Source: Enterobacteria phage P4 | Sequence record: NC_001609.1 | DNA: 11,624 nt | Strand: one strand, 5' to 3' | Shown: piece after piece, positions 1-11,624 of the stretch | Numbering within the stretch: the first letter of the stretch is position 1 | Layout of the letters: each line of letters begins with the position of its first letter | Notes under the pieces: model-generated | Told to the model about the DNA's origin: nothing | What the model saw: the letters and a program-made list of their open reading frames with translations, nothing else | The model's database searches: none | Position numbers and translations under genes: made by a program

Positions 1-19
1 GGCGAGGCGGGGAAAGCAC
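1..19 (+). other. cos left cohesive end (19-nt P2/P4-type 5' overhang sequence)
   Basis: Bases 1-19 are GGCGAGGCGGGGAAAGCAC, which I recall as the P2/P4 cohesive-end sequence. The right end of the window (about 11560-11624) carries GC-rich inverted repeats consistent with the terminase-recognition part of cos. Confidence 0.6.
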
Positions 20-246
20 CGCGCGCAAACCGACAAGTTAGTTAATTATTTGTGTAGTCAAAGTGCCTTCAGTACATACCTCGTTAATACATTGGAGCAT
101 AATGAAGAAAATCTATGGCCTATGGTCCAAAACTGTCTTTTTTGATGGCACTATCCTGAAAAATATGCAAAAAATAGATTGATGTAAGGTGGTTCTTGTC
201 AGTGTCGCAAGATCCTTAAGAATTCGTGGCATGAGAGAGTTAAAGG

Positions 247-648
247 ATGCTGAATCATGTATATGGATTAATTGGCGTTGTTGGGACCATAATCACTATT
301 GCTACTAGCTTCATCCGCAACCAAGATATTTCACAATGGTTGCTCGTTTGTTCTGGATGGTTAGCTGCTTTACTTATTGGATGGTTTACACACAGAACGA
401 TTAAAGCAATTAGCAACAACCACACGAATGTTATAAAAAGTAATATGGAGGTAATCAACAGTCATAATGAATCCAATCAAAACTTGATGGCTGAAAACAA
501 AGAATTGATTAAAGAACTTGCAAGAACTTCAGAACAGAAAGAGAAGATGGAAAGTATAGCTGCTTATCTTGCTACTCAGAACCCCCAAATTAACGCTATG
601 CCAAGAACAGCAAGCCGACCAGAAAATATCGATTCGGAGGCTAATTAA
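247..648 (+). CDS. gop: Gop, small two-transmembrane protein (host-killing in absence of Beta, per P4 literature)
   Basis: 133-aa ORF with ATG at 247 and only one in-frame Met near the start. Two hydrophobic helices (about residues 5-23 and 31-47) precede a charged, coiled-coil-like C-terminus. Stop TAA 646-648 sits 2 nt before the next ATG. Naming rests on recalled P4 order gop-beta-cII left of int. Confidence 0.65.
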   Translation: MLNHVYGLIGVVGTIITIATSFIRNQDISQWLLVCSGWLAALLIGWFTHRTIKAISNNHTNVIKSNMEVINSHNESNQNLMAENKELIKELARTSEQKEKMESIAAYLATQNPQINAMPRTASRPENIDSEAN

Positions 649-650
649 AT

Positions 651-1718
651 ATGAAAGTATATTTTGAAAATTACTCATACTATCCAGCCCTAAGAACACG
701 ATCAGCAGAAATGACCGGACTGAATAATTTATCATATGAGAATAAGAAAAAAATATTACCTTTAATTTCTTTGGGGAAATGGCCTCGCTCGGAAGAAATA
801 CAGGTATCGTTAGATAAAAGTTTAGAAGTGATGAGTAATCTCCCATTTATTTTGGATGTCACAAAGGATAATTCTCATCATTGCGCGTCAAGCTTCGAAC
901 TACTCTCTCCTGAGAATGGTTTTAAAAACTGGATAGAGTTTTGTTCCAGAAATGATAATATTATTCCAGTAGTCCAGATGCCGGATTCAGCAAAACTTAG
1001 AGATATATCTATCCAAGCCAGGGTTTTAGAGGAACTTAAAGGTTCAATTGCATTTAGAATTAGAAATCTAAATACAGACATTAATAAAACCCTGACGTCA
1101 CTAGTATCGATGAACTCTCCAGAAAATGCCATAGTTTTCATAGATTTGGGCTACATTAGAGGGAATGTATCTGCTATAACAGCTGCAGCAATAAATTCGA
1201 TTAATCAGATTAGAACTGAGATTCCTGAAGCCATAATTAGTGTGCTAGCAACAAGCTTCCCTAGTTCAGTTACAAATTTTTGCCGTGAAAATGGACAGTC
1301 CGGATATATTGATGTTATTGAGAGAGAATTGCATCAAAATATTGGTGGAAGTGATGTCGCTATTTATGGCGATCATGGTTCAATTCATTCAGTAGTGTAT
1401 GACAACATAATTGGGCGATATGTTCCTAGAATTGATATAGCGTTAAATGATTCATGGTATTTCGAGCGCCGCCCTGGGATGAATAAAGAAGGGTTCATTG
1501 AAGCTGCGAAATCAATTTTGGCAGAGTATCCACATTATCAAAGGGAGGACTCTTGGGGAGCTGCAATGATAAGAAATGCTGCTATAGGGGATATAGCAGG
1601 TATGGGAAGTCCAGCTAAATGGATTGCTGTTCGAGTGAATCTACACTTAAATAAGCAAATTGAGCTATCTGAAGCTCTACAGTATGGCTTTGATCATGAT
1701 GAGGAAGATCTTATCTAA
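651..1718 (+). CDS. beta: Beta protein (Beta_protein family), protects from Gop
   Basis: 355-aa ORF, ATG at 651 with GGAGG at 636-640, translationally coupled to gop. Clean single frame through an AT-rich region. Assigned as P4 beta by position and size; family assignment is from memory. Confidence 0.7.
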   Translation: MKVYFENYSYYPALRTRSAEMTGLNNLSYENKKKILPLISLGKWPRSEEIQVSLDKSLEVMSNLPFILDVTKDNSHHCASSFELLSPENGFKNWIEFCSRNDNIIPVVQMPDSAKLRDISIQARVLEELKGSIAFRIRNLNTDINKTLTSLVSMNSPENAIVFIDLGYIRGNVSAITAAAINSINQIRTEIPEAIISVLATSFPSSVTNFCRENGQSGYIDVIERELHQNIGGSDVAIYGDHGSIHSVVYDNIIGRYVPRIDIALNDSWYFERRPGMNKEGFIEAAKSILAEYPHYQREDSWGAAMIRNAAIGDIAGMGSPAKWIAVRVNLHLNKQIELSEALQYGFDHDEEDLI

Positions 1719-1749
1719 TAAAAAACTAGGGAAGGTTAGCCTTCCCTAG
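1718..1749 (-). terminator. Rho-independent terminator of leftward cII transcript, convergent with the gop-beta 3' end
   Basis: Perfect hairpin CTAGGGAAGG-TTAG-CCTTCCCTAG at 1726-1749. On the minus strand it is followed by a U-run (complement of A-run 1719-1725). It overlaps the cII stop codon (1746-1748) and lies immediately after the beta stop (1716-1718). Confidence 0.7.
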
Positions 1750-2540
1750 CCCACAACCCTTTTAAGTACTTTTTCCGGAATATAGGAAACATCATCGCCA
1801 TATTTCCTAACTATAGAGTCAACATCAACCTTATGGTATTCATTTAAAGATTTCTCCGAACAAGCCTTAAACTCAAACTTAACCAAAGAATTATTCCTTC
1901 TTTTAGCTTTGCTCAATAAGGCAAGATCGTTTATAGATATTTCTTGATTACCATGGAGTCTAGATAAAAAATCATTAGATGTCGCATGATACCTATTTTT
2001 AATAGATGTAATGACAAATTCTCTAATCTTGTTTAAAGATAACTTAGATGCCAAAACCTCAAGACAATCCCTATGTAGTTCATTTGAAAATGTAATTCCA
2101 TACTGATTAAGCAGATCTTTAAGCTCAGACTTAAGCAAAAAACCCAAATAAACAAATTTATTTAAGCGAGAGCAAACCCTTCCTTTTTGAATTATTTTAA
2201 AGCGTACGCTACTATTATTAGATTGAAATTCTACAACGCCAACATCTGATGAAACCCGTTTAGATACTTCACTGGTAAATTTTGGCGCGCACACAATTGT
2301 AACTTTTTCGAAGCTAGATTTAAAAATTTTTAACTGACCATCCAAGCGCTTAAGAGAGTCAAAATCGCTTTTTATTTCAAAAGCTTGTAGGCTTCCATTG
2401 GCAATAGCCAAATCAGCTCTTCTGCTCCAGTTAGCAACAACCATTTCATTAATGATCGTTGCATCACTAAGCATGCCTTTTTTATATAACCATTCAATTA
2501 GGGCTATTTTAACTTCCTGCTCTCGCAATAACTCAGCCAT
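1746..2540 (-). CDS. cII: cII protein, possible PD-(D/E)xK-type nuclease fold (inference)
   Basis: ORF track gives 1746..2555 with a GTG start and no visible SD; the first ATG is at 2540-2538 (MAELLREQ...), used here as the start. The N-terminal region contains E...RADL(x12)FEIK, resembling a D-(D/E)xK motif. Naming by position as the third nonessential P4 gene, transcribed leftward. Confidence 0.6.
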   Translation of the reverse strand: MAELLREQEVKIALIEWLYKKGMLSDATIINEMVVANWSRRADLAIANGSLQAFEIKSDFDSLKRLDGQLKIFKSSFEKVTIVCAPKFTSEVSKRVSSDVGVVEFQSNNSSVRFKIIQKGRVCSRLNKFVYLGFLLKSELKDLLNQYGITFSNELHRDCLEVLASKLSLNKIREFVITSIKNRYHATSNDFLSRLHGNQEISINDLALLSKAKRRNNSLVKFEFKACSEKSLNEYHKVDVDSIVRKYGDDVSYIPEKVLKRVVG

Positions 2541-2606
2541 GTTAATCACACTCACTTCACGTTGATTTTTATTATAGCAACTAACAATTAAAAACTCCAG
2601 ATTATG

Positions 2607-3926
2607 TTACTTAACACTCATTTTAAAAATCAACCAATAACTATTTTTATTTAAGTATTTCTTTGTATTTTGAATAATCATAAGGCTAATATATTTATTA
2701 CGGTTCATATCCAAATAATCAGCCCACCACTGCATCATTAAACGCCGCTCATCCAAATGCTCGGAGGTATGGATATATGCCGCACGTACATTATTACGCT
2801 CTGAGTGGCTCAGTTGCCTCTCTATCGCGTCATCACTCCATAACCCCGACTCCCCCAACGCACCACGCGCCATAGTCCTAAACCCATGCCCACACACCTC
2901 GGTTTTAGTATCATAGCCCATCGCACGCAATGCGCTGTTTACCGTGTTTTCACTCATAACCTTAGTTGCGTCATGATCCCCCGGAAAAAGCAGCTCTTTA
3001 TCACCACTAATCTGCTTTAACTGGTTTAATAAAATCATCGCCTGTCGACTAAGCGGAACGATATGTTCCTCTTTCATCTTCATGCCTCGGTACGAATAAC
3101 GCACACCTTTAATTTCTTCTCGCTTTGCAGGTATACGCCAAAGAGATTTATCGAAGTCGAATTCATCCCAACGTGCGAAACGTAATTCACTGGAACGCAC
3201 AAAAGTTAGCAAGGAAAGCTTGACCGCAATCCGTGTCATTACACGGCCACGATATGCAGCAAGACGTGCAAGAAACTCAGGGAATCGGCTAGAAGGTAAA
3301 GCAGGGTAATGTCGCGCTTTGGTTGTCGATAGCGCACCAGCCATATCGCTGGCTGGATTTGAGTCGATGTAATCGTTCTGTACGGCATAACGCATAATGG
3401 CTGTGACGCGCTGTTGCAGGCGCTGAGCGACATCGTGTTTGCCACTGGCATCAACTTTTTTAATCGGGGCTAACAGGTGGCTGGTTTTAAGCTGCCGAAT
3501 GTCGGACGAACCGATATGAGGGAATATATAAAGCTCAAGATAGCGAAGAACGCGCGATCGATGGTCTTCACTCCAGCGCTTGTTACTGGCATGCCATTCT
3601 CGGGCGATAGCTTCAAAAGTATATGCCCCCGAATTCTCGGCCCGAGCTTCTTTTTGTACGACTTTTGGGTCTATGCCCTGTACTAAAAGCTTTTTAGCTT
3701 CATCGCGTTTTGCTCTTGCCTGAGCAAGCGTCACAGTAGGCCAAACACCAAACGCAAGACGATCCTCTTTTTTGTCAGAGGGACGTCTGTATTTCATGCG
3801 CCAGTATTTGGAACCTTTGGCCGAAACCTCAAGATACAAACCACCACCATCGGCCATTTTGTAGGTTTTGTCTTTTGGCTTTGCGGTCTCGACCTGTCTG
3901 GCGTTGAGCTTCATTTGGGGGCACAT
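2607..3926 (-). CDS. int: P4-type tyrosine integrase (site-specific recombinase, phage integrase family)
   Basis: 439-aa ORF. N-terminus MKLNARQVETAKPKDKTYKMADGGGLYLEV is the typical P4-integrase arm-binding region; catalytic signature HGFRT...RAAYIHT near the C-terminus. First ATG at 3926, second at 3914. The C-terminal tail runs into AT-rich sequence. Confidence 0.9.
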   Translation of the reverse strand: MCPQMKLNARQVETAKPKDKTYKMADGGGLYLEVSAKGSKYWRMKYRRPSDKKEDRLAFGVWPTVTLAQARAKRDEAKKLLVQGIDPKVVQKEARAENSGAYTFEAIAREWHASNKRWSEDHRSRVLRYLELYIFPHIGSSDIRQLKTSHLLAPIKKVDASGKHDVAQRLQQRVTAIMRYAVQNDYIDSNPASDMAGALSTTKARHYPALPSSRFPEFLARLAAYRGRVMTRIAVKLSLLTFVRSSELRFARWDEFDFDKSLWRIPAKREEIKGVRYSYRGMKMKEEHIVPLSRQAMILLNQLKQISGDKELLFPGDHDATKVMSENTVNSALRAMGYDTKTEVCGHGFRTMARGALGESGLWSDDAIERQLSHSERNNVRAAYIHTSEHLDERRLMMQWWADYLDMNRNKYISLMIIQNTKKYLNKNSYWLIFKMSVK

Positions 3927-3965
3927 TTCTAATCGAAGTTAAGATGCCCCCAATTATGCCCCCAA
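3916..3965. repeat. Cluster of three (A/G)TGCCCCC(A) repeats, candidate integrase arm-type binding sites
   Basis: GTGCCCCCAA inverted at 3916-3925 (overlapping the int start codon), ATGCCCCCAA at 3944-3953 and 3956-3965. Two more copies lie at 4154-4173 on the other side of the att core. Confidence 0.5.
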
Positions 3966-4077
3966 TGATATCCGGATTTCAACGGACAACCTCGGAAGAC
4001 GCAGGACGAAAAAATCGCTGCAAGCATTGATTTTAAAGGGATATTTGGACTTTCTCGGATGGTCTTGGAAGTAAGAA

Positions 4078-4101
4078 TGGTGCCGAAGGCCGGACTCAAA
4101 C
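4078..4101 (-). other. attP core region with homology to the 3' end of a tRNA (leuX-type tRNA-Leu)
   Basis: TGGTGCCGAAGGCCGGACTCAAAC is the reverse complement of a tRNA T-arm/acceptor 3' end (...GTTTGAGTCCGGCCTTCGGCACCA). Only the 3' segment is present, as expected for a phage att core that regenerates the tRNA 3' end on integration. Confidence 0.55.
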
Positions 4102-4153
4102 ATCAAAATAAGTTAATGATAAAAAACAAATAATAAAACACAACAATGAAATA

Positions 4154-4173
4154 TGCCCCCTTTTGTGCCCCCA
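4154..4173. repeat. Two further (A/G)TGCCCCC repeats on the far side of the att core
   Basis: ATGCCCCC at 4154-4161 and GTGCCCCCA at 4166-4173, the same motif as the 3916-3965 cluster, bracketing the tRNA-like core. Confidence 0.5.
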
Positions 4174-4290
4174 CTGTTTTTCTGACCAATCTATTTTCAG
4201 CCCATCAATAAATCGGAAAGTTAAATCATTTTTAATCAGTAAGTTTGGATCCGTAGCTCGGATCCAAACCAGTGCATCTTTTATCCACAT

Positions 4291-4590
4291 AAAAAATTTT
4301 TTTTCGAAAGAACTGTTCACACTGTTCACCTTTCTGTTTTCTCCTTTTATTTCAGAGTGATAGGTGGTGAATAATGGGTGAAGGGTGAACATTCGATTCT
4401 TCACCTCCGGCATTCTGCCGATGTGACTCATACCGGTGATTAATCCTCCGCACTGAAATCACTCAGGAAGAAAAAAGTTTTTTTTGATTTGATTGTTCAC
4501 ACTGTTCACCTTTCGTTTTTCTCTTTTAATTTCAGTGTGATAACGGGTGAATATACGGTGAAGGGTGAACAGTGGATTGTTCACCTTCGG
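4291..4590. repeat. crr (cis replication region): two 120-bp direct repeats carrying alpha-binding type I iterons
   Basis: Copies at 4291-4410 and 4471-4590 are near-identical, with an exact 180-bp period (ACTGTTCACC at 4321 and 4501) and a 60-bp unrelated spacer. Each copy holds several TGTTCACC / GGTGAAYA octamers in both orientations. Confidence 0.75.
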
Positions 4591-4603
4591 GGGATATCGG
4601 GAT

Positions 4604-4628
4604 AAAAAAAGACCGGCAGATGCCGGTC
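4604..4628 (-). terminator. Rho-independent terminator downstream of alpha
   Basis: Hairpin GACCGGCAGATGCCGGTC at 4611-4628 followed on the minus strand by a 7-U run (complement of A7 at 4604-4610), a few nt past the alpha stop (4636-4638). Confidence 0.65.
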
Positions 4629-4635
4629 AGGTGGG

Positions 4636-6969
4636 TCAGGCTGTTGTAGGGTCGTCACATTTTGGCAGCCAGTCGCCGTAGCTTTCCTCTTTCAGCGTCA
4701 GGTTGGTCTGTATCCCCTGTTTGGTATGGCGTTTCTCGTAATTCAGTCCGTATTCCTTCAGCATCACCGGCAGCCCCAGCCCGAACATTTTCAGACTGAG
4801 TACATTCCGGTAGCCGTTTGCCTCCATGTAGGCCAGATAGGCGTGATAGAGGTATTTACGGTAATTGCGCGGGATGATACTGGCGTTCCCCATATACATG
4901 CCGCTGGTCTGCGGCAGGGTTTCCAGATAGCCGATAAAATCAAACGTCGGGTCGGCATCCCGTTTGATGTTCAGTGCCTCGTCTGAGTTCTGCTGGGACT
5001 GAAGCAGTGACCGGGCGAGCATCGGGTCGCTGAACTTCTGCATCAGGTGACGCACGATGACCGCCAGCTCGCGGGTGATTTTGTCCTTAAGCTGCGGGTC
5101 GCGCTCCTGCGGGGCTATCTGTTCCGGGAAGTGAATAATCACCCGTCGGCGTGACACGCCGCCGCTGCGGTCGGTGAAGCGCATCGGGTTATTGTTCACG
5201 GCCAGAATCACCGCCGGGATGTGCGTGGAGTACGCATCCCGGTATTTCGGGTCAACGGACACCGCATCGCCGCCGGTGATGGCCTTGAGTCCGGCACCGT
5301 CGCCGCTCCATTTTTCCTGGTCCGGCAGGCGTATCAGTGAGAAGCCAGTTAACGCGGCACGTTCACGCGGGGATTCCAGCGTCTCGATGGTGGCCGACGT
5401 GGCGTTATCCTCCCCGGCCAGCAGGGTGGCTATTTCGGCCATGATACTTTTGCCGCTGCCGCCGGGACCGGTCACCTCCAGAAAGAGCTGCCAGTCGTAG
5501 CGGTTTGCCAGCACCATAAACAGTGCAGCCAGAATCACGTCGCGTTTTTCCGCACGGCCACCGGCGGCACGGTCAAGCCAGCGCCAGAAGGCGGGGGCGT
5601 GGGTTTCCAGCGTTTCACCGTCCACCGGCGGGGTGAAATCCACATCGCACAGGGTGCGCATCCAGTGTGACGGACTGTGCGGGTGGAACGTGCCGTTCTG
5701 CGTGTCGAGCACGCCGTTACGAAAGCCAATCAGGCGGCGGGAGGGGGCTTCCTGCTGCGGAATAATCAGCTTCAGGGTATCCACCACGGAGGCCACCTTC
5801 CCGGAGGAGAACGGCGCACGCAGACGCTGAAACAGCCCGGCCACATCCCGGGCAAAGTCCTGTGGCGGCAGCACCTTCCAGACACCATTTTCATAGCGGG
5901 ACAGAAGCTGGCCGTTGGCATCGACCGCGAGCGCCTCGCCGTAATGCTCATAGATACGCATGGCCTTTTCGCTGGTACTCATGGCGGAAAACTCCGCTTC
6001 GCTCATGGTGTCGAACGGGCTTTCAGCCGGTGGCCGGATGGCATCGTAAATGGCCTTACGGGTGGCCTCCCCGCCGTACTGCGTGAAGGCATCATTCCAG
6101 TCACCGAAGACCGGCGGCAGGGCAACAACACCTTCACACGCATCTGCGGCTGCGGCGGCTTTTTTCTGGCCGTCACCACTGAGGTCACGGTCAGCGGCAA
6201 GGACAATCTGACAGGCGGGGTGCTTCTGCCGGGCAAGGCTGGCCAGAGAAAGGAGGTTCACGGAAGAAAGCGCCACCATCACCGTTTCACCGGTCAGGTG
6301 ATGTACGGTAAGTGCGGTCGCGTATCCCTCCGCTATCCACAGACGTTTTCCGGCCTGATTCTGTCCTTCAAGGGTGTGACAGGTGCCCCTGACCTGTCCG
6401 CCTTTCAGGGTGCGCTTACGGCCGTCAGCACTGATTAACTGAAGGTTAACCAGTTCGCCGCTGTCGTCATACAGTGGCACCACAAGGTCACCGGCGCGCC
6501 AGCTCACGCCACCGGCTCTGTGTGTGCCGGTCAGCATCCGGCATTCCCGGCCGGGAAAGCCCTTGCGGGTCAGGTAGGCGTTACCGGTTCCGGTACGGGT
6601 TTTCGCCATCAGGGTTTGTGCCAGTGCGGCGGCGTTCTTCCGGGCAGCGTCTGTTTCATCAACGGCGGCGGTCGTCACTGCCGGGTCAGCCGGTGGCAGG
6701 CTGCCGGTCACGGCAGCCACCTTTGCGGCCGCGTCGGACGGGGAAACACCAAAAACCTTTTCAACCAGTTTCAGGCCGTCACCGGCACCACACTGATTGC
6801 AGTACCAGGTGCCGCGCCCCTCCCTGTCATCAAAACGGAAGCGGTCACTCCCGCCACAGACCGGACAGGGCTGATGACGGTTCTTCAGCACCTGAATCCC
6901 CAGCGCCGGGAGAATACGCGGCCAGTGGCCGAGCGCATGGCTGACGGTGGCGGTTACGTTCATTTTCAT
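4636..6969 (-). CDS. alpha: Alpha protein: bifunctional DNA primase / helicase with C-terminal iteron-binding domain (P4 replication protein)
   Basis: 777-aa ORF. N-terminal zinc-ribbon CPVCGG...(x)...YCNQCG, primase region, then Walker A GPGGSGKS (D5-like helicase). AAGGAG SD 8 nt upstream of the ATG at 6969. Length matches recalled P4 alpha. Confidence 0.92.
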   Translation of the reverse strand: MKMNVTATVSHALGHWPRILPALGIQVLKNRHQPCPVCGGSDRFRFDDREGRGTWYCNQCGAGDGLKLVEKVFGVSPSDAAAKVAAVTGSLPPADPAVTTAAVDETDAARKNAAALAQTLMAKTRTGTGNAYLTRKGFPGRECRMLTGTHRAGGVSWRAGDLVVPLYDDSGELVNLQLISADGRKRTLKGGQVRGTCHTLEGQNQAGKRLWIAEGYATALTVHHLTGETVMVALSSVNLLSLASLARQKHPACQIVLAADRDLSGDGQKKAAAAADACEGVVALPPVFGDWNDAFTQYGGEATRKAIYDAIRPPAESPFDTMSEAEFSAMSTSEKAMRIYEHYGEALAVDANGQLLSRYENGVWKVLPPQDFARDVAGLFQRLRAPFSSGKVASVVDTLKLIIPQQEAPSRRLIGFRNGVLDTQNGTFHPHSPSHWMRTLCDVDFTPPVDGETLETHAPAFWRWLDRAAGGRAEKRDVILAALFMVLANRYDWQLFLEVTGPGGSGKSIMAEIATLLAGEDNATSATIETLESPRERAALTGFSLIRLPDQEKWSGDGAGLKAITGGDAVSVDPKYRDAYSTHIPAVILAVNNNPMRFTDRSGGVSRRRVIIHFPEQIAPQERDPQLKDKITRELAVIVRHLMQKFSDPMLARSLLQSQQNSDEALNIKRDADPTFDFIGYLETLPQTSGMYMGNASIIPRNYRKYLYHAYLAYMEANGYRNVLSLKMFGLGLPVMLKEYGLNYEKRHTKQGIQTNLTLKEESYGDWLPKCDDPTTA

Positions 6970-6983
6970 GGTGTTGTTCTCCT

Positions 6984-7304
6984 TCAGTGCAGTACCGGCG
7001 CTTTTATGTGACGGGCACAGAGTTCATCCATCACAACCAGCCCGAGAAAGGACAGCGACGGCGCGGCCTTCAGGGGGCCGGATTCCATTAAATCTTCCAG
7101 CAGGGCACAGGCTATCTGACGCCCTTTTTCCTCACCGTGCTGGCGCAGATAAAAGCCTTCCAGCTCAGCGGCGATGGCCGCCTCCAGTGACTCAAGGGTG
7201 AGATGCGGGTAGCGGTGCTGACGTTCGCACACGGTCAGCCAGGCACAGGCGACAGCGCGACGGTAAAGGGCAGCGCGTAAGACGGGCGGTAAGGGTGTTT
7301 TCAT
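6984..7304 (-). CDS. Hypothetical protein (106 aa) immediately upstream of alpha
   Basis: ORF with ATG at 7304 preceded by GGGAGAA SD; stop 14 nt before the alpha start. Function not recognised. Confidence 0.65.
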
Positions 7305-7439
7305 TTGCTTTTCTCCCTGTGACAGATGACTGCATTCCGTGCCGGTTGCATTAACTGATAAGGCATATCTGCGTCTCCTGAAGACGTGCGTATCCCTGCG
7401 CGAATACGCACATTTAATTTTTCGGGGGTCGTTTTTTAA

Positions 7440-7895
7440 TTACAGATAATTGCGGTAACTGTTATCCGGGGTGGTTTCCGGGTCAGGCTCCGTGCGGGGA
7501 ATTTCCCGCCATTCCCGCGCCACCGGTGCTGCCCGGCTGACCGGAACAGTGTCCTGCGGGTAAATATCCAGATATTTTTCCCGCCATTTCTGTAATTCCG
7601 GGTCTCCGGCCATTTCTTTCAGTACCGCATGCCGGTTTACGGGGCTGCGTTTAAACAGGTCAGGACGGTCACAGGTAAATTCCCGCAGAAAACGCCCCAG
7701 CGGGATGTCTGTGGTGCGTCCGTCAGCGAGGATACGCACAAGGATACTGAATTTACGGCGGTACGGGTTCCAGACAATGTCCGGGCAGCGGTACGGCATT
7801 TCCCACGGAATACCGTCTTCCAGAATGCCGACCACGGCCACATCGGGAAAACCGGCAGAACGGTAAATCTCACCGGGCTGGGGAAAATCAAACAT
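7440..7895 (-). CDS. orf151, conserved P4 protein of unknown function
   Basis: 151-aa ORF; the ATG at 7895-7893 lies 2 nt after the stop of the upstream ORF. Size matches the P4 ORF known by this name. Confidence 0.7.
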   Translation of the reverse strand: MFDFPQPGEIYRSAGFPDVAVVGILEDGIPWEMPYRCPDIVWNPYRRKFSILVRILADGRTTDIPLGRFLREFTCDRPDLFKRSPVNRHAVLKEMAGDPELQKWREKYLDIYPQDTVPVSRAAPVAREWREIPRTEPDPETTPDNSYRNYL

Positions 7896-8175
7896 GCGTC
7901 CTGTCTCCCCGGTCTTTCTGCTGGGCGAGAAAATCGCGGCACAGGCCTTTGGCTTTCAGCTCATTCAGCACAAAATCAATATCTTCATTCAGGTAGCTGA
8001 AAATATGTGGAATGTAGAGCTGATGCAGGCCGGAGAGTTCACGGTGAATCAAATCACCCCCAACAAACCGGGATACGGCGCTGGCGCGGTTGAGCTTATG
8101 GTAAGCCTCAATGCTGAGGTGTTCACGGGCGTCATGACGCGCTGAGACGGTCTGAGGGGCTTTTTTATTACGCAC
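7888..8175 (-). CDS. eps: Epsilon, candidate antirepressor that derepresses the helper prophage (95 aa if GTG start)
   Basis: C-terminal part of the 7888..8460 reading frame. A GTG at 8175-8173 is preceded by GGAGG with 6-nt spacing and overlaps the kil stop by 8 nt, giving 95 aa. The alternative ATG at 8220 (110 aa) would overlap kil extensively. Identity from position between kil and orf151. Confidence 0.5.
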
Positions 8176-8365
8176 GGGACACCTCCACCACCGGCAGACG
8201 GGCAGCAAGGGAGAGCACATAGTCACGGACAAGGGAACGGCGGGCACTGCGTTCATCACCGGCGACGGTGCGAAGCATACAGATACGGGGATGACGGTCT
8301 GCGCGACGGACAGCCGCAAACACAAAGACAAATTCAGGGTGTGAGGGGGTAAGGGTTGTAGCCAT
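8168..8365 (-). CDS. kil: Kil, first translated gene of the early leftward operon (65 aa)
   Basis: Last 65 codons of the 8168..8812 frame ([12 protein letters not shown]...EVSRA). ATG at 8365-8363 is preceded by AGGAGG with about 8-nt spacing; the upstream part of the frame lacks an SD and covers the untranslated leader. Name and size from recalled P4 literature. Confidence 0.5.
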
Positions 8366-8419
8366 GATGGCAGCCTCCTGTGAATAGCAAATAACGCTAT
8401 CGCCGGAGTTCTCACGCTC

Positions 8420-8505
8420 GATGGCGATAGCCCAGACGGGGGTGAGAATACCGGCTTCACAGGATACCGGCCAGCCCGGAGGCTGCCCCGCCTGAGCTAC
8501 CATTG
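8420..8505 (-). ncRNA. cI: Candidate cI immunity RNA region (approximate)
   Basis: Untranslated leader between the predicted PLE and kil. Contains a segment (plus-strand GGGGGTGAGAATACC, 8437-8451) complementary to a 10-mer direct repeat GTTCTCACGC found upstream (8660-8669) and downstream (8408-8417), matching the seqA/seqB/seqC logic of P4 immunity. Boundaries are approximate and from memory. Confidence 0.3.
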
Positions 8506-8689
8506 ACTCTGCGGCATAATGAGCGGACGCGGGCAGGATGCACGGAATGCCATCTGCACGACTGACCACACACCACACCATAATCTGGCGCTCTGTGGCA
8601 TTGATTGCGACACAAAAAAAGACGCGTGGCGCGTCATATGTCGCCTGTGAATTGCTCGGGTTCTCACGCCCGGCTGCCGATTTTGCGGC

Positions 8690-8729
8690 AGGCGAAAAAC
8701 TATATCCGCAAATGCCGGAAAAAGGCAAG
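8690..8729 (-). promoter_or_regulatory. Candidate early leftward promoter PLE (sigma70-like)
   Basis: On the minus strand, TTGCCT (-35, plus 8729-8724), about 18-nt spacer, TATAGT (-10, plus 8704-8699); predicted start near 8690. Lies just downstream of the vis stop. Confidence 0.3.
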
Positions 8730-8763
8730 CCAGAAAAAGGGAGTTTTTGCAGAGCGGGCATCA

Positions 8764-9030
8764 TCATGCGTCGTACCCCCGTTTGCGTCCGGCAATGCGT
8801 CCGGCCATCCATGCGGTGACTTCAGAGTGCAGCCAGGCCACATTTTTACCGCCAAGACTCACCTGCGGCGGAAATTCCCCCTTACGGATGAGTTCGTAGA
8901 TGGTCGAGCGTGACAGGCCGCACAGGTGCATCACTTCCGGCACACGTAAAAAACGCTCCTGCGTGATGTCCGGCAGCGGCATCAGTGGCGTCACTGGGGC
9001 GGGAGACGGGGAAGAAAAAACAGCTTGCAT
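8764..9030 (-). CDS. vis: Vis, AlpA/Xis-like helix-turn-helix regulator and excision factor (orf88)
   Basis: 88-aa ORF with ATG at 9030 and GAGG SD 7 nt upstream. Contains the AlpA-family HTH ...[30 protein letters not shown].... First gene downstream of the late leftward promoter. Confidence 0.8.
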
Positions 9031-9132
9031 CGGGCTACCTCGTTAATGTCCATACAGCACCGGATAAGTCCGTCCGGCTTCGGGTAGCGCTTTATTTTGT
9101 GAATATTTTCAGCAGACGCAACAGGGGGGATT

Positions 9133-9150
9133 TGTTCAGGCTGTCTTACA
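9133..9150 (-). promoter_or_regulatory. TGT-N12-ACA dyad: Delta/Ogr-type activator site of the late leftward promoter PLL
   Basis: TGTTCAGGCTGTCTTACA at 9133-9150, the P2/P4 late-promoter activator dyad, about 100 bp upstream of the vis start in the leftward direction. Confidence 0.5.
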
Positions 9151-9179
9151 ATGGCTGTGTGTTTTTTGTTCATCTCCAC

Positions 9180-9209
9180 TTAAAGTCATTTAAAGCCACT
9201 TAAAGCAAT
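9180..9209. promoter_or_regulatory. Three tandem cox-box-like repeats (TTAAAGNNAN) at exact 10-bp spacing
   Basis: TTAAAGTCAT / TTAAAGCCAC / TTAAAGCAAT at 9180-9189, 9190-9199 and 9200-9209, upstream of the PLL activator dyad. Resembles binding sites for helper P2 Cox (and possibly P4 Vis). Confidence 0.45.
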
Positions 9210-9308
9210 TTGTAATTTTTATAGTGAAATACAAATCGTTTCTTCTTATTCATTCCCGGCGAATTAATAAAAACAAACAGTAGTAAACAGCACAAAAAGC
9301 CCATCAAC

Positions 9309-9414
9309 GGGTGAACAGTGGTGAACAGACGGTGAACAGTCATTACTGCGATTGTTCACCCTTTAACTTACTGTATTACTTATCTTTTTTATTAAGGTGA
9401 ACAGAGGTGAACAG
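9309..9414. other. ori: origin of replication with six alpha-binding type I iterons and an AT-rich spacer
   Basis: GGTGAACA at 9310-9317, 9320-9327, 9331-9338, 9396-9403 and 9406-9413, plus inverted TGTTCACC at 9354-9361. AT-rich stretch 9362-9395. Same octamer as in crr. Confidence 0.65.
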
Positions 9415-9492
9415 TAAAATATAAAAAAACAAACAGTAAGCCGGTTTTTCCTGCGACCTTTTCCTGGCTTGCCGGTCTGAGGATGAGTCTCC

Positions 9493-9510
9493 TGTGTCAG
9501 GGCTGGCACA
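9493..9510 (+). promoter_or_regulatory. TGT-N12-ACA dyad: Delta/Ogr-type activator site of the late rightward promoter Psid
   Basis: TGTGTCAGGGCTGGCACA at 9493-9510, about 75-90 bp upstream of the sid ATG, consistent with an activator site centred near -55. Confidence 0.55.
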
Positions 9511-9582
9511 TCTGCAATGCGTCGTGTTGTTGTCCGGTGTACGTCACAATTTTCTTAACCTGAAGTGACGAGGAGCCGGAAA

Positions 9583-10317
9583 ATGTCTGACCACACTATC
9601 CCTGAATATCTGCAACCCGCACTGGCACAACTGGAAAAGGCCAGAGCCGCCCATCTTGAGAACGCCCGCCTGATGGATGAGACCGTCACGGCCATTGAAC
9701 GGGCAGAGCAGGAAAAAAATGCGCTGGCGCAGGCCGACGGAAACGACGCTGACGACTGGCGCACGGCCTTTCGTGCAGCCGGTGGTGTCCTGAGCGACGA
9801 GCTGAAACAGCGCCACATTGAGCGCGTGGCACGCCGGGAGCTGGTACAGGAATATGACAATCTGGCCGTGGTGCTGAATTTCGAACGTGAACGCCTGAAA
9901 GGGGCGTGTGACAGCACGGCCACCGCCTACCGGAAGGCACATCATCACCTTCTGAGTCTGTATGCAGAGCATGAGCTGGAACACGCCCTGAATGAAACCT
10001 GTGAGGCGCTTGTCCGGGCAATGCATCTGAGCATTCTGGTACAGGAAAATCCGCTCGCCAACACCACCGGCCATCAGGGCTACGTCGCACCGGAAAAGGC
10101 TGTCATGCAGCAGGTGAAATCATCGCTGGAACAGAAAATTAAACAGATGCAAATCAGCCTCACCGGCGAGCCGGTTCTCCGGCTGACCGGACTGTCAGCG
10201 GCAACACTCCCGCACATGGATTATGAGGTGGCAGGCACACCGGCACAGCGCAAGGTGTGGCAGGACAAAATAGACCAGCAGGGAGCAGAGCTTAAGGCCA
10301 GAGGGCTGCTGTCATGA
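9583..10317 (+). CDS. sid: Sid, external scaffold / capsid size determination protein
   Basis: ORF track starts at GTG 9565, but the ATG at 9583 is preceded by AGGAG (9571-9575) and gives 244 aa (MSDHTIPEYL...), matching recalled Sid length. Helical, Ala/Glu/Leu-rich sequence. Confidence 0.85.
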   Translation: MSDHTIPEYLQPALAQLEKARAAHLENARLMDETVTAIERAEQEKNALAQADGNDADDWRTAFRAAGGVLSDELKQRHIERVARRELVQEYDNLAVVLNFERERLKGACDSTATAYRKAHHHLLSLYAEHELEHALNETCEALVRAMHLSILVQENPLANTTGHQGYVAPEKAVMQQVKSSLEQKIKQMQISLTGEPVLRLTGLSAATLPHMDYEVAGTPAQRKVWQDKIDQQGAELKARGLLS

Positions 10318-10814
10318 TTTACTGTCCGTCGTGTGGACATGTTGCTCACACCCGTCGCGCACATTTCATGGACGATGGCACCAAGATAATGATTGCACAG
10401 TGCCGGAATATTTATTGCTCTGCGACATTTGAAGCGAGTGAAAGCTTTTTCTCTGACAGTAAAGATTCAGGAATGGAATACATTTCAGGCAAACAGAGAT
10501 ACCGCGATTCACTGACGTCAGCCTCCTGCGGTATGAAACGCCCGAAAAGAATGCTTGTTACCGGATATTGTTGTCGGAGATGTAAAGGCCTTGCACTGTC
10601 AAGAACATCGCGGCGTCTGTCTCAGGAAGTCACCGAGCGTTTTTATGTGTGCACGGATCCGGGCTGTGGTCTGGTGTTTAAAACGCTTCAGACCATCAAC
10701 CGCTTCATTGTCCGCCCGGTCACGCCGGACGAACTGGCAGAACGCCTGCATGAAAAACAGGAACTGCCGCCAGTACGGTTAAAAACACAATCATATTCGC
10801 TGCGTCTGGAATGA
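10314..10814 (+). CDS. delta: Delta, late-gene transcriptional activator (tandem Ogr-like zinc fingers)
   Basis: 166-aa ORF; ATG overlaps the sid stop (ATGA). Two C-x2-C...C-x4-C zinc-finger units: CPSCGH...CRNIYC and CRRCKG...CTDPGC. Confidence 0.9.
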   Translation: MIYCPSCGHVAHTRRAHFMDDGTKIMIAQCRNIYCSATFEASESFFSDSKDSGMEYISGKQRYRDSLTSASCGMKRPKRMLVTGYCCRRCKGLALSRTSRRLSQEVTERFYVCTDPGCGLVFKTLQTINRFIVRPVTPDELAERLHEKQELPPVRLKTQSYSLRLE

Positions 10815-10887
10815 GGGCTGCCGGTTAACACCGGCCGTCGCCGCACACCGTATTTTTATTCTTCAGCATGATGAGAAAGAGATAACG

Positions 10888-11460
10888 ATGGAAAGCACAG
10901 CCTTACAGCAGGCCTTTGACACCTGTCAGAATAACAAAGCAGCATGGCTGCAACGCAAAAATGAGCTGGCAGCGGCCGAACAGGAATATCTGCGGCTTCT
11001 GTCAGGAGAAGGCAGAAACGTCAGTCGCCTGGACGAATTACGCAATATTATCGAAGTCAGAAAATGGCAGGTGAATCAGGCCGCCGGTCGTTATATTCGT
11101 TCGCATGAAGCCGTTCAGCACATCAGCATCCGCGACCGGCTGAATGATTTTATGCAGCAGCACGGCACAGCACTGGCGGCCGCACTGGCACCGGAGCTGA
11201 TGGGCTACAGTGAGCTGACGGCCATTGCCCGAAACTGTGCCATACAGCGTGCCACAGATGCCCTGCGTGAAGCCCTTCTGTCCTGGCTTGCGAAGGGTGA
11301 AAAAATTAATTATTCCGCACAGGATAGCGACATTTTAACGACCATCGGATTCAGGCCTGACGTGGCTTCGGTGGATGACAGCCGTGAAAAATTCACCCCT
11401 GCGCAGAACATGATTTTTTCGCGTAAAAGTGCGCAACTGGCATCACGTCAGTCAGTGTAA
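10888..11460 (+). CDS. psu: Psu, polarity suppression protein (Rho antagonist / capsid decoration)
   Basis: 190-aa ORF, last gene of the sid-delta-psu operon. Size and position match recalled P4 psu. Confidence 0.88.
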   Translation: MESTALQQAFDTCQNNKAAWLQRKNELAAAEQEYLRLLSGEGRNVSRLDELRNIIEVRKWQVNQAAGRYIRSHEAVQHISIRDRLNDFMQQHGTALAAALAPELMGYSELTAIARNCAIQRATDALREALLSWLAKGEKINYSAQDSDILTTIGFRPDVASVDDSREKFTPAQNMIFSRKSAQLASRQSV

Positions 11461-11490
11461 AATTCCCCGAAAATCCGCCCGTTTTTACTG

Positions 11491-11527
11491 AAAAAAGCCA
11501 TGCATCGATAAGGTGCATGGCTTTGCA
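11491..11527 (+). terminator. Candidate terminator hairpin downstream of psu
   Basis: GCCATGCA-(9-nt loop)-TGCATGGC at 11497-11521, flanked by A6 upstream and TTTG downstream. The U-tract is weak, so it may act bidirectionally or inefficiently. Confidence 0.4.
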
Positions 11528-11624
11528 TGCGTTTTCCTGCCTCATTTTCTGCAAACCGCGCCATTCCCGGCGCGGTCTGAGCGTGTCAGTGCAACTGCAT
11601 TAAAACCGCCCCGCAAAGCGGGCG

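Follow-up and report, generated by a model that had tools for sequence, protein, structure and literature searches.

The question raised by this locus is why the base composition of a small satellite phage genome should change so sharply along its length, and whether its AT-rich portion has a history of its own. The stretch under study, referred to below as the window, is the whole 11,624 nucleotide sequence of Enterobacteria phage P4 (NC_001609.1). An earlier note made from its letters had proposed that the left arm, being poor in guanine plus cytosine (GC), is a horizontally acquired cargo cassette that was inserted next to the integration module. Sequence comparisons support the view that this arm consists of cargo that can be exchanged and that moves horizontally as a cassette beside the integration module, and the explanation that we favour as a whole, namely that the window is the P4 genome and that its AT-rich arm, made up of foreign defence cargo, fills the variable slot which every P4-like satellite has between cos/psu and int, is given a probability of about 0.92.

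That the window holds the satellite phage P4 genome in its entirety is concluded from the tiling of database records, its start at cos and its full-length match to a natural prophage. A search of phage records recovered four GenBank entries of Enterobacteria phage P4 that together tile positions 1 to 11070 at 99.5 to 100% identity; the first bases of the window are the P4/P2 cohesive end GGCGAGGCGGGGAAAGCAC (cos), and one natural E. coli prophage matches all 11,624 bases at 99.3% identity. The four records are as follows.

M27748: window positions 1 to 2640, covering gop, beta, cII and the 3′ end of int, at 100% identity.
X05947: window positions 2557 to 4252, covering int and attP, at 99.5% identity.
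X05623: window positions 4260 to 7322, covering alpha and crr, at 100% identity.
X02534: window positions 7250 to 11070, covering sid, delta and others, at 99.8% identity.

The length of 11,624 bp is also what we take to be the published length of the P4 genome. Annotation and prophage context show the P4 gene set to be complete, comprising the alpha primase-helicase, sid, delta, psu, int, attP in tRNA-Leu and crr, while a tRNA scan of the window found no tRNA gene, the att core matching a tRNA-Leu fragment only. In the prophage, psu and cos (10888-11624 and 1-29) are followed by the cassette (30-2716) and then by int, and the parts on which the argument turns are the following.

Positions 1 to 29, no strand: left cohesive end cos and a few conserved bases, with which the conserved core ends ahead of the variable slot.
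Positions 30 to 2716: AT-rich variable cassette, the non-essential region of P4 and the occupant of its psu/cos-int hotspot, GC 0.352.
Positions 2718 to 3926, minus strand: integrase body with arm-binding, central and catalytic domains (Pfam PF13356, PF22022 and PF00589; X05947), GC 0.486.
Positions 4636 to 11460: GC-rich conserved core (annotation of X05623 and X02534), containing alpha (4636-6969), orf106, orf151, the epsilon/cI region, the ori/promoter region, sid, delta and psu.

The compositional contrast on which the earlier note was founded is real. Positions 1-2700 have a GC content of 0.355 and positions 4600-11460 one of 0.561, the value for the whole window being 0.495, and the GC profile thus revealed a significant difference between arm and core (two-proportion z = -18) rather than none. 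Entropy-based segmentation placed change points at 2719/2720, 4610/4611 and 7289/7290, which divide the window into four segments.

Positions 1 to 2719: GC 0.355.
Positions 2720 to 4610: GC 0.452.
Positions 4611 to 7289: GC 0.610.
Positions 7290 to 11624: GC 0.531.

When read in 300-bp blocks the left arm ranges from 0.30 to 0.41 as against 0.36 to 0.64 for the core (Mann-Whitney p = 4e-5). It is coding DNA that carries the contrast, most of all at the third positions of codons, where GC is 0.34 in gop and 0.28 in both beta and cII, the genes of the left arm, compared with 0.46 in the integrase body, 0.71 in alpha, 0.64 in sid and 0.55 in psu. The left border of the arm lies at about nucleotide 30, just inside cos, where GC falls from 0.52 to 0.35. 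At the other border the integrase gene straddles the transition with an AT-rich 3′ tail, just as had been described by eye, the body having a GC of 0.486 and the last 111 nucleotides one of 0.20, and the many antisense open reading frames (ORFs) that had been remarked upon do overlap alpha and the remaining core. Two descriptions required amendment. The att region at 3930-4300 (GC 0.383), said to be strongly AT-rich, is so from about 4090 onwards (approximately 4090-4350, and on through crr to about 4560), but is moderate, at 0.42-0.50, between 3930 and 4090. The interval 4600-11460 is GC-rich overall but not uniformly, being interrupted by a deep AT-rich dip at about 9130-9420 (GC 0.23-0.38, with a short rise to about 0.45-0.48 near 9280-9310) and including delta (10314-10814), which has a GC of 0.49 and a third-position value of 0.48, its neighbours sid and psu being at 0.58 and 0.53. 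The core itself, at 0.56-0.61 and with alpha reaching 0.71 at third positions, lies well above the window average. Typical E. coli GC is roughly 0.51, which is below that of the P4 core, and against this general value the composition of the core is atypical for the host too.

Comparison with P4-like prophages, which had been put forward as the means of mapping where synteny breaks, located the breaks at 26-29 and at 2707-2717, with unrelated AT-rich cargo between them. P4-like DNA was present in 1,479 genomes out of a set of 5,426 complete E. coli genomes, and coverage of at least 80% of the window was found in only 31. A circularly permuted window was aligned to five intact tRNA-Leu prophages that carry other cargo and whose cores are 98-99% identical to that of P4. 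In each of the five the aligned part takes in the att core, crr, alpha, sid, delta and psu, crosses the 11624/1 junction into cos and ends at 26-29. On the int side four of the prophages regain similarity within 2707-2717 and the fifth regains it at 2668; for a leuX island that is not P4 and has only the integrase in common the point is 2651. Positions 30-2716 have no similarity in P4-like prophages with other cargo, and the GC change point at 2719/2720 coincides with the int-side border of synteny. According to annotation, the slot in the five tRNA-Leu prophages is occupied by a type II restriction-modification (RM) system, a reverse transcriptase (RT) with a partner gene, a TIR protein, a Doc-family toxin, or two hypothetical genes, and two elements located at other sites, whose integrases are unrelated, have GapS4a or DUF262 plus HEPN there and match P4 4291-11624 at about 98%. 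All of these alternative cargos are AT-rich (GC 0.31-0.38) as compared to cores of 0.56. The P4 cassette itself (30-2706) was present in only 39 of the 5,426 genomes, at an identity of at least 99.7% and in all cases adjoining the P4 integrase at tRNA-Leu, which amounts to 39 of the 1,479 genomes with P4-like DNA and 39 of the 719 with a P4-type int.

A number of derivatives of these elements were also encountered. In three E. coli genomes (NZ_AP027946.1, NZ_CM168011.1 and NZ_CM130020.1) an IS1B insertion lies within the gop-beta-cII cassette, at one locus (L013) the cassette and int are kept and the whole P4 core is lost, and at another (L022) only an IS1-truncated int is left. A second integrase gene, intact or truncated, was present just outside attR at three loci (L006 1-1302, L011 463-1728 and L005 518-1300), an arrangement suggestive of islands that stand in tandem or have decayed at this one tRNA-Leu site.

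The cassette genes are also found far from P4. Protein searches recovered homologues of cII and beta in Salmonella, Serratia, Enterobacter, Pectobacterium, Rahnella, Proteus, Pseudomonas, Burkholderia and others. In a Serratia P4-like satellite a small gene, beta and a convergent cII occupy the same slot, between int and delta, and the same three-gene layout lies next to type VI secretion system (T6SS) genes in Burkholderia. In a Pseudomonas island (CP194945.1, L017 7244-9956) that also holds an integrase, AlpA and a DUF927 primase, a cII-beta pair is located directly beside a gene for an MvaT-type (H-NS-like) DNA-binding protein, no gop-like small gene having been called beside beta. The GC content of the unit as compared to its flanks was 0.39 versus 0.61-0.64 in Serratia, 0.38-0.45 versus 0.59 in Pseudomonas and 0.54-0.57 versus 0.70 in Burkholderia, that is, roughly 10 to 27 GC points under the flanks in all three settings. 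These values show that the AT bias belongs to the cargo and not to its position in P4, and the recurrence of a low-GC unit in three unrelated settings supports horizontal movement of the cassette. The proposal that the left arm is a horizontally acquired cargo cassette beside the integration module has thus held up, on the evidence of the synteny breaks, the occurrence in 39 of 1,479 genomes and the contexts in other genera.

The cargo carried by P4 is gop-beta-cII, a three-gene anti-phage system of abortive-infection and toxin-antitoxin-like character, the genetic outline of which has been shown by others. In our analysis its identity as a defence system is based on hidden Markov model (HMM) matches to the PADLOC models gop, beta and cll, and the layout is the canonical one, with gop and beta co-directional and cII convergent.

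Positions 247 to 648, plus strand: gop, 133 amino acids (aa) (annotation of M27748; PADLOC gop, 4.8e-70).
Positions 651 to 1718, plus strand: beta, 355 aa (Pfam Beta_protein PF14350, 4.3e-56; PADLOC beta, 8.2e-188).
Positions 1720 to 1752, minus strand: stem-loop terminator lying between beta and cII, which converge; a consensus scan gives it a stem of 13 pairs with a T run behind it (potential rho-independent terminator of M27748).
Positions 1746 to 2540, minus strand: cII, of the sce7726 / Phage_P4_cII family (M27748; PADLOC cll, 3.5e-113; NCBIfam NF033832).

A Pfam search assigned no family to gop or cII, and NCBIfam identified cII as sce7726 and gave only a sub-threshold match for gop. Promoter-like consensus sites within 1-4700 numbered 5, as against 12.1 in shuffled sequences, which is fewer than expected by chance, and no promoter claims are drawn from them. 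The hydropathy profile of Gop, with a hydrophobic N-terminal half containing two candidate membrane helices and a charged C-terminal half, points to a small membrane protein. The structural model of beta (predicted local distance difference test score, pLDDT, 90.5) has a predicted (beta/alpha)-barrel-like fold, its best matches among solved structures being TIM-barrel enzymes (aldolases and triose-phosphate isomerase), which are weak with template modelling (TM) scores of 0.3-0.45; about 40 residues of beta are invariant, many of them polar, and it is tentatively considered a barrel-fold probable enzyme. In cII the residues D48, E60 and K62, forming a D48...E60-x-K62 motif in the N-terminal domain, are invariant across 36 sequences, and the model (pLDDT 86.7) gave as its best structural matches 3dnx (E 8e-5), Bax1, YaeQ and NucS, all of them weak. 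We take these four to have restriction-endonuclease-like folds of the PD-(D/E)xK superfamily, and cII is tentatively regarded as a nuclease-like protein of this type. The invariant residues and predicted folds suggest that beta and cII are both enzymes and not simple antitoxin or regulator proteins. A sequence search of the two against solved structures produced chance-level matches only. The named gop-beta-cII system protects against lambda and P1, Gop being the reported toxic component and toxic when beta is missing (PMC9122126), and death of the cell through gop-beta-cII is set off by orf184, an accessory gene of a phage (bioRxiv 10.1101/2023.04.06.535777). The working model that we consider most likely is one of abortive infection, in which a phage protein would relieve the control that beta exerts on Gop, and possibly on the putative cII nuclease too, whereupon the infected cell would die.

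How one cargo comes to replace another may be judged from the degree to which cassettes and integrase alleles co-vary. Integrase bodies are 80-92% identical among elements with different cargo, while the cores are 98-99% identical. Linkage was assessed for the P4 arm and for three other cassettes.

P4 int allele with left attP arm (2717-4094): at least 99% identity in 40 genomes, these being the 39 gop carriers and one IS1-truncated remnant; next allele at 94.5%.
RM cassette with its int: full coverage in 69 genomes, 72 at 99% or above; all others at 90% or below.
Two-gene cassette with its int: full coverage in 20 genomes, 21 at 99% or above.
RT cassette with its int: at least 80% coverage in 31 genomes, 67 at 95% or above; looser linkage.

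Linkage to int was thus tight in two of the three other cassettes tested (RM and two-gene), and among the genomes with gop there is more variation in the core than in the arm; in two of them, for instance, ori is at 91% and the arm at 99.7-100%. From these patterns the arm from cos to the att core often behaves as one linkage block, with the int allele largely travelling with the cargo. Perfect linkage of int and cargo as a general rule was rejected in view of the RT cassette, for which 67 genomes match at 95% or above and 31 have cassette plus int at 80% coverage or above; this looser linkage implies that cargo-only replacement probably occurs too.

Among the tRNA-Leu P4-like prophages (loci L004-L008 and L011-L014) three tiers of similarity were observed, with the core (4095-11624) at 98-99%, the int body and left attP arm (2717-4094) at 80-96% and the cargo without similarity. 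Within the core, the ori/promoter region (9031-9564) is mosaic, being 91-92% identical to P4 in L005, L011 and L012 and 97-100% identical in L004, L006, L007 and L009, and the cI-orf88 region (8461-9030) aligns only partly, over 423 of 570 nucleotides, in L006 and L012. Together these regions make up another zone of recombination or variation, of lesser extent, within the core.

Cargo is most likely replaced by recombination in conserved flanks, with one crossover falling in the cos/psu core and the other either within int or further on, where the att site and the host tRNA lie. With the int-side crossover lying inside or beyond int, the int allele would usually change with the cargo, and the last 20 or so int codons would share the composition of the cargo. 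The jump in GC marks the junction of two DNA histories, that of a conserved GC-rich core for replication, regulation and capsid hijacking and that of rapidly replaced AT-rich foreign cargo. As a tentative extension of this scheme, which we think possible but rather doubtful, the unit usually exchanged among tRNA-Leu satellites may extend over the entire arm, with cos and the att core as its limits, and so comprise the cargo, its own integrase allele and the left attP arm; each cassette would then have a private, anciently diverged integrase (80-92% as compared to 98% for the core), and the AT-rich last 20 or so codons of int would be linked to the cargo.

The AT-rich patches of P4 that lie outside the left arm are of a different nature, and the sites concerned are these.

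Positions about 4078 to 4097 (within 3 nucleotides): attP core of 20 bp, matching the 3′ part of the host tRNA-Leu gene (annotation of X05947).
Positions 4291 to 4590: crr, the cis replication region, with two 120-bp direct repeats at 4291-4410 and 4471-4590 (X05623; the repeats cross-match).

The 14 nucleotides at 4084-4097 are duplicated exactly at both prophage ends, the attL copy being inside tRNA-Leu. Both attP and crr are kept in relatives at core-like identity (94.5-98.8%), and the AT-rich stretch that they occupy (approximately 4090-4560) represents cis-acting sites and not acquired cargo. The dip at about 9130-9420 sits between the divergent left and sid promoters, and we take it to be the reported location of the P4 origin (ori). 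The right arm of attP, crr and, going by its reported location, ori are protein-binding cis sites and not acquired DNA.

These patches lend some plausibility to the notion that the AT-richness of the left arm arose in place through functional or mutational pressure, for instance from nucleoid proteins, promoters or replication sites, and not through foreign origin, and the MvaT-type gene adjoining the Pseudomonas homologue of the cassette could be cited to the same effect. We nonetheless find this hardly credible, as the arm is almost entirely coding with a bias that is strongest at third codon positions (0.28-0.34), is missing from 97% of the genomes with P4-like DNA, which have unrelated genes in its place, and recurs as the same cassette in unrelated contexts of other genera; non-homologous cargo in elements with a 98% identical core contradicts it. 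The opposite possibility, that it is the GC-rich core which arrived recently or is sweeping, and which has repeatedly recombined into old resident int-plus-cargo arms at tRNA-Leu, is unlikely but deserves more weight. It would account for cores that are 98-99% identical while their int genes differ by 8-20%, for the presence of the same core with unrelated integrases at other tRNA sites, and for a core GC of 0.56-0.61 that exceeds both the window value and the approximately 0.51 generally known for E. coli. Yet it describes the same recombination from the other side and leaves the cargo foreign, in view of its GC of 0.31-0.38, the lack of similarity between cargos and the occurrences in other genera, and according to a published analysis the defence loci of P4 and P2 turn over at such a rate that unrelated systems are found on cores which are nearly identical (PMC13586616, Moura de Sousa et al. 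2026).

A third explanation would have the cassette move by a site-specific or transpositional mechanism of its own, as an integron-like cassette, transposon or homing element. Its borders are indeed reproducible, at 26-29 on the cos side and 2707-2717 on the int side in most elements, and the hotspot is located directly beside cos in both P4 and P2 (PMC9122126). Against this, the int-side border varies (2651, 2668 and 2707-2717), no direct or inverted repeats surround the cassette, which has no recombinase or transposase gene, and transposable elements were all but absent from these hotspots in a published survey (PMC13586616). A search for repeats pairing the two cassette borders gave only short AT-rich chance matches, on which ground a transposon or integron-like origin was rejected, and Pfam and NCBIfam detected no recombinase domains in the three cassette ORFs; autonomous movement is thus very improbable. 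The word "inserted" in the earlier note was too specific, there being neither flanking repeats nor a transposase and the int allele largely co-varying with the cargo. The unit exchanged is therefore often the cargo together with int, and exchange through recombination in the flanks is the better description.

The favoured explanation, a variable slot filled with foreign defence cargo by flanking recombination, has weaknesses of its own. The homologues of cII and beta, found mainly in Proteobacteria with high-GC genera included, point to no particular donor of the AT-rich DNA, and a scan of one genome per species with beta-derived peptide patterns gave 48 pattern matches of which none was confirmed, the patterns probably picking up close relatives alone and the scan being uninformative as to taxonomic spread. 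Nor is the linkage between int and cargo absolute, as seen for the RT cassette (67 versus 31 genomes), and recent clonal spread of each element could explain part of it. The recombination mechanism is deduced from patterns of divergence. Finally, the structural matches of beta and cII are weak, with TM scores of at most 0.45 for beta and one match with E < 1e-3 for cII, and the enzymatic roles proposed for them are tentative as a consequence.

Close to the int-side border the reference sequence has a peculiarity that affects the reading of the integrase tail.

Positions 2607 to 2717, minus strand: AT-rich 3′ tail of the int frame as read in the window, 111 nucleotides, GC 0.20.

Relative to natural P4 prophages the window is without one base between 2686 and 2687 (five of five checked), and the natural copies are one base longer over this interval in 39 of 39 cases. 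In the window the int frame ends in ...KYISLMIIQNTKKYLNKNSYWLIFKMSVK after 439 aa, with its stop at 2607, and is without the conserved TP(Y/F)D motif of the family, while natural prophage int ends in ...KYITPYDYSKYKEILK, at 422 aa from the annotated start and with a stop at about 2647-2649, and has the family motif. X05947 carries the same deleted form, but the reference was probably derived from it in this part, and the missing base is either a sequencing error in the reference or a real laboratory mutation. The one-base deletion lengthens the int frame, and part of the AT-rich 3′ tail is therefore out-of-frame read-through. In all relatives the int tail past 'WWADYL' has a GC of 0.20-0.33 and no nucleotide similarity between cargo types, and it keeps the peptide motif (I/V)TP(Y/F)(D/E)(F/Y)(A/S)K. 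The one-base difference in the P4 reference distorts the annotated C-terminus of the integrase and hence matters for annotation.

The boundary as such is already known, corresponding to the published non-essential region of P4 and to the psu-int defence hotspot. Ghisotti et al. in 1990 are said to have defined the genes of the non-essential region and the toxicity relation between gop and beta, and the GenBank record of that region (M27748), with gop, beta and cII annotated, is 100% identical to the window over 1-2640. More than 300 gene arrangements have been described in E. coli for the psu-int locus, a hotspot at which P4 carries gop, beta and cII (PMC9122126, Rousset et al. 2022). The slot described here has the same position, conserved flanks and kinds of alternative cargo, and the P4 arm is this hotspot in the reference genome. 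Nothing of substance differs from the published accounts; what is added is the uniform AT-richness of the cargo (GC content has 0 mentions in the text of PMC9122126 and PMC13586616), the exact coordinates of the breaks and the co-variation of int alleles, which are small additions and not discoveries. The hotspots of the helper phage P2 (old, tin and others) likewise hold variable anti-phage cargo beside the shared cos but differ in their flanking genes, which are gpA and gpQ (PMC9122126), and P2 and P4 exchange no cargo with each other (PMC13586616). With tRNA-linked islands and low-GC xenogeneic DNA the arm shares an atypical composition (GC 0.352 versus 0.56, and 0.28-0.34 versus 0.55-0.71 at third positions), an adjacent tyrosine integrase and tRNA gene and a sporadic distribution among strains; unlike classical islands, it lies inside a satellite and is bounded by cos and the 3′ end of int, the att repeats bounding the whole satellite. 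P4 beta also matches the PD-Lambda-2_C models of PADLOC at 8e-14 and 2e-8, far more weakly than its own model (8.2e-188), indicating that beta-like proteins recur in PD-Lambda-2.

A boundary called by eye from composition has thus correctly found the well-documented division between a satellite core and its swappable anti-phage cargo. In the annotation of P4-like elements, the drop in GC after cos and its recovery inside the 3′ end of int mark the defence slot to within a few bases, and the AT-rich patches at attP, crr and ori are not to be taken for cargo. The co-variation of int allele and cargo provides a modest lead for studies of hotspot turnover, and exchange of the whole arm, if true, would mean that the swapping of defence systems among these satellites is tied mechanistically to the integration module and is not the property of a free-standing hotspot.

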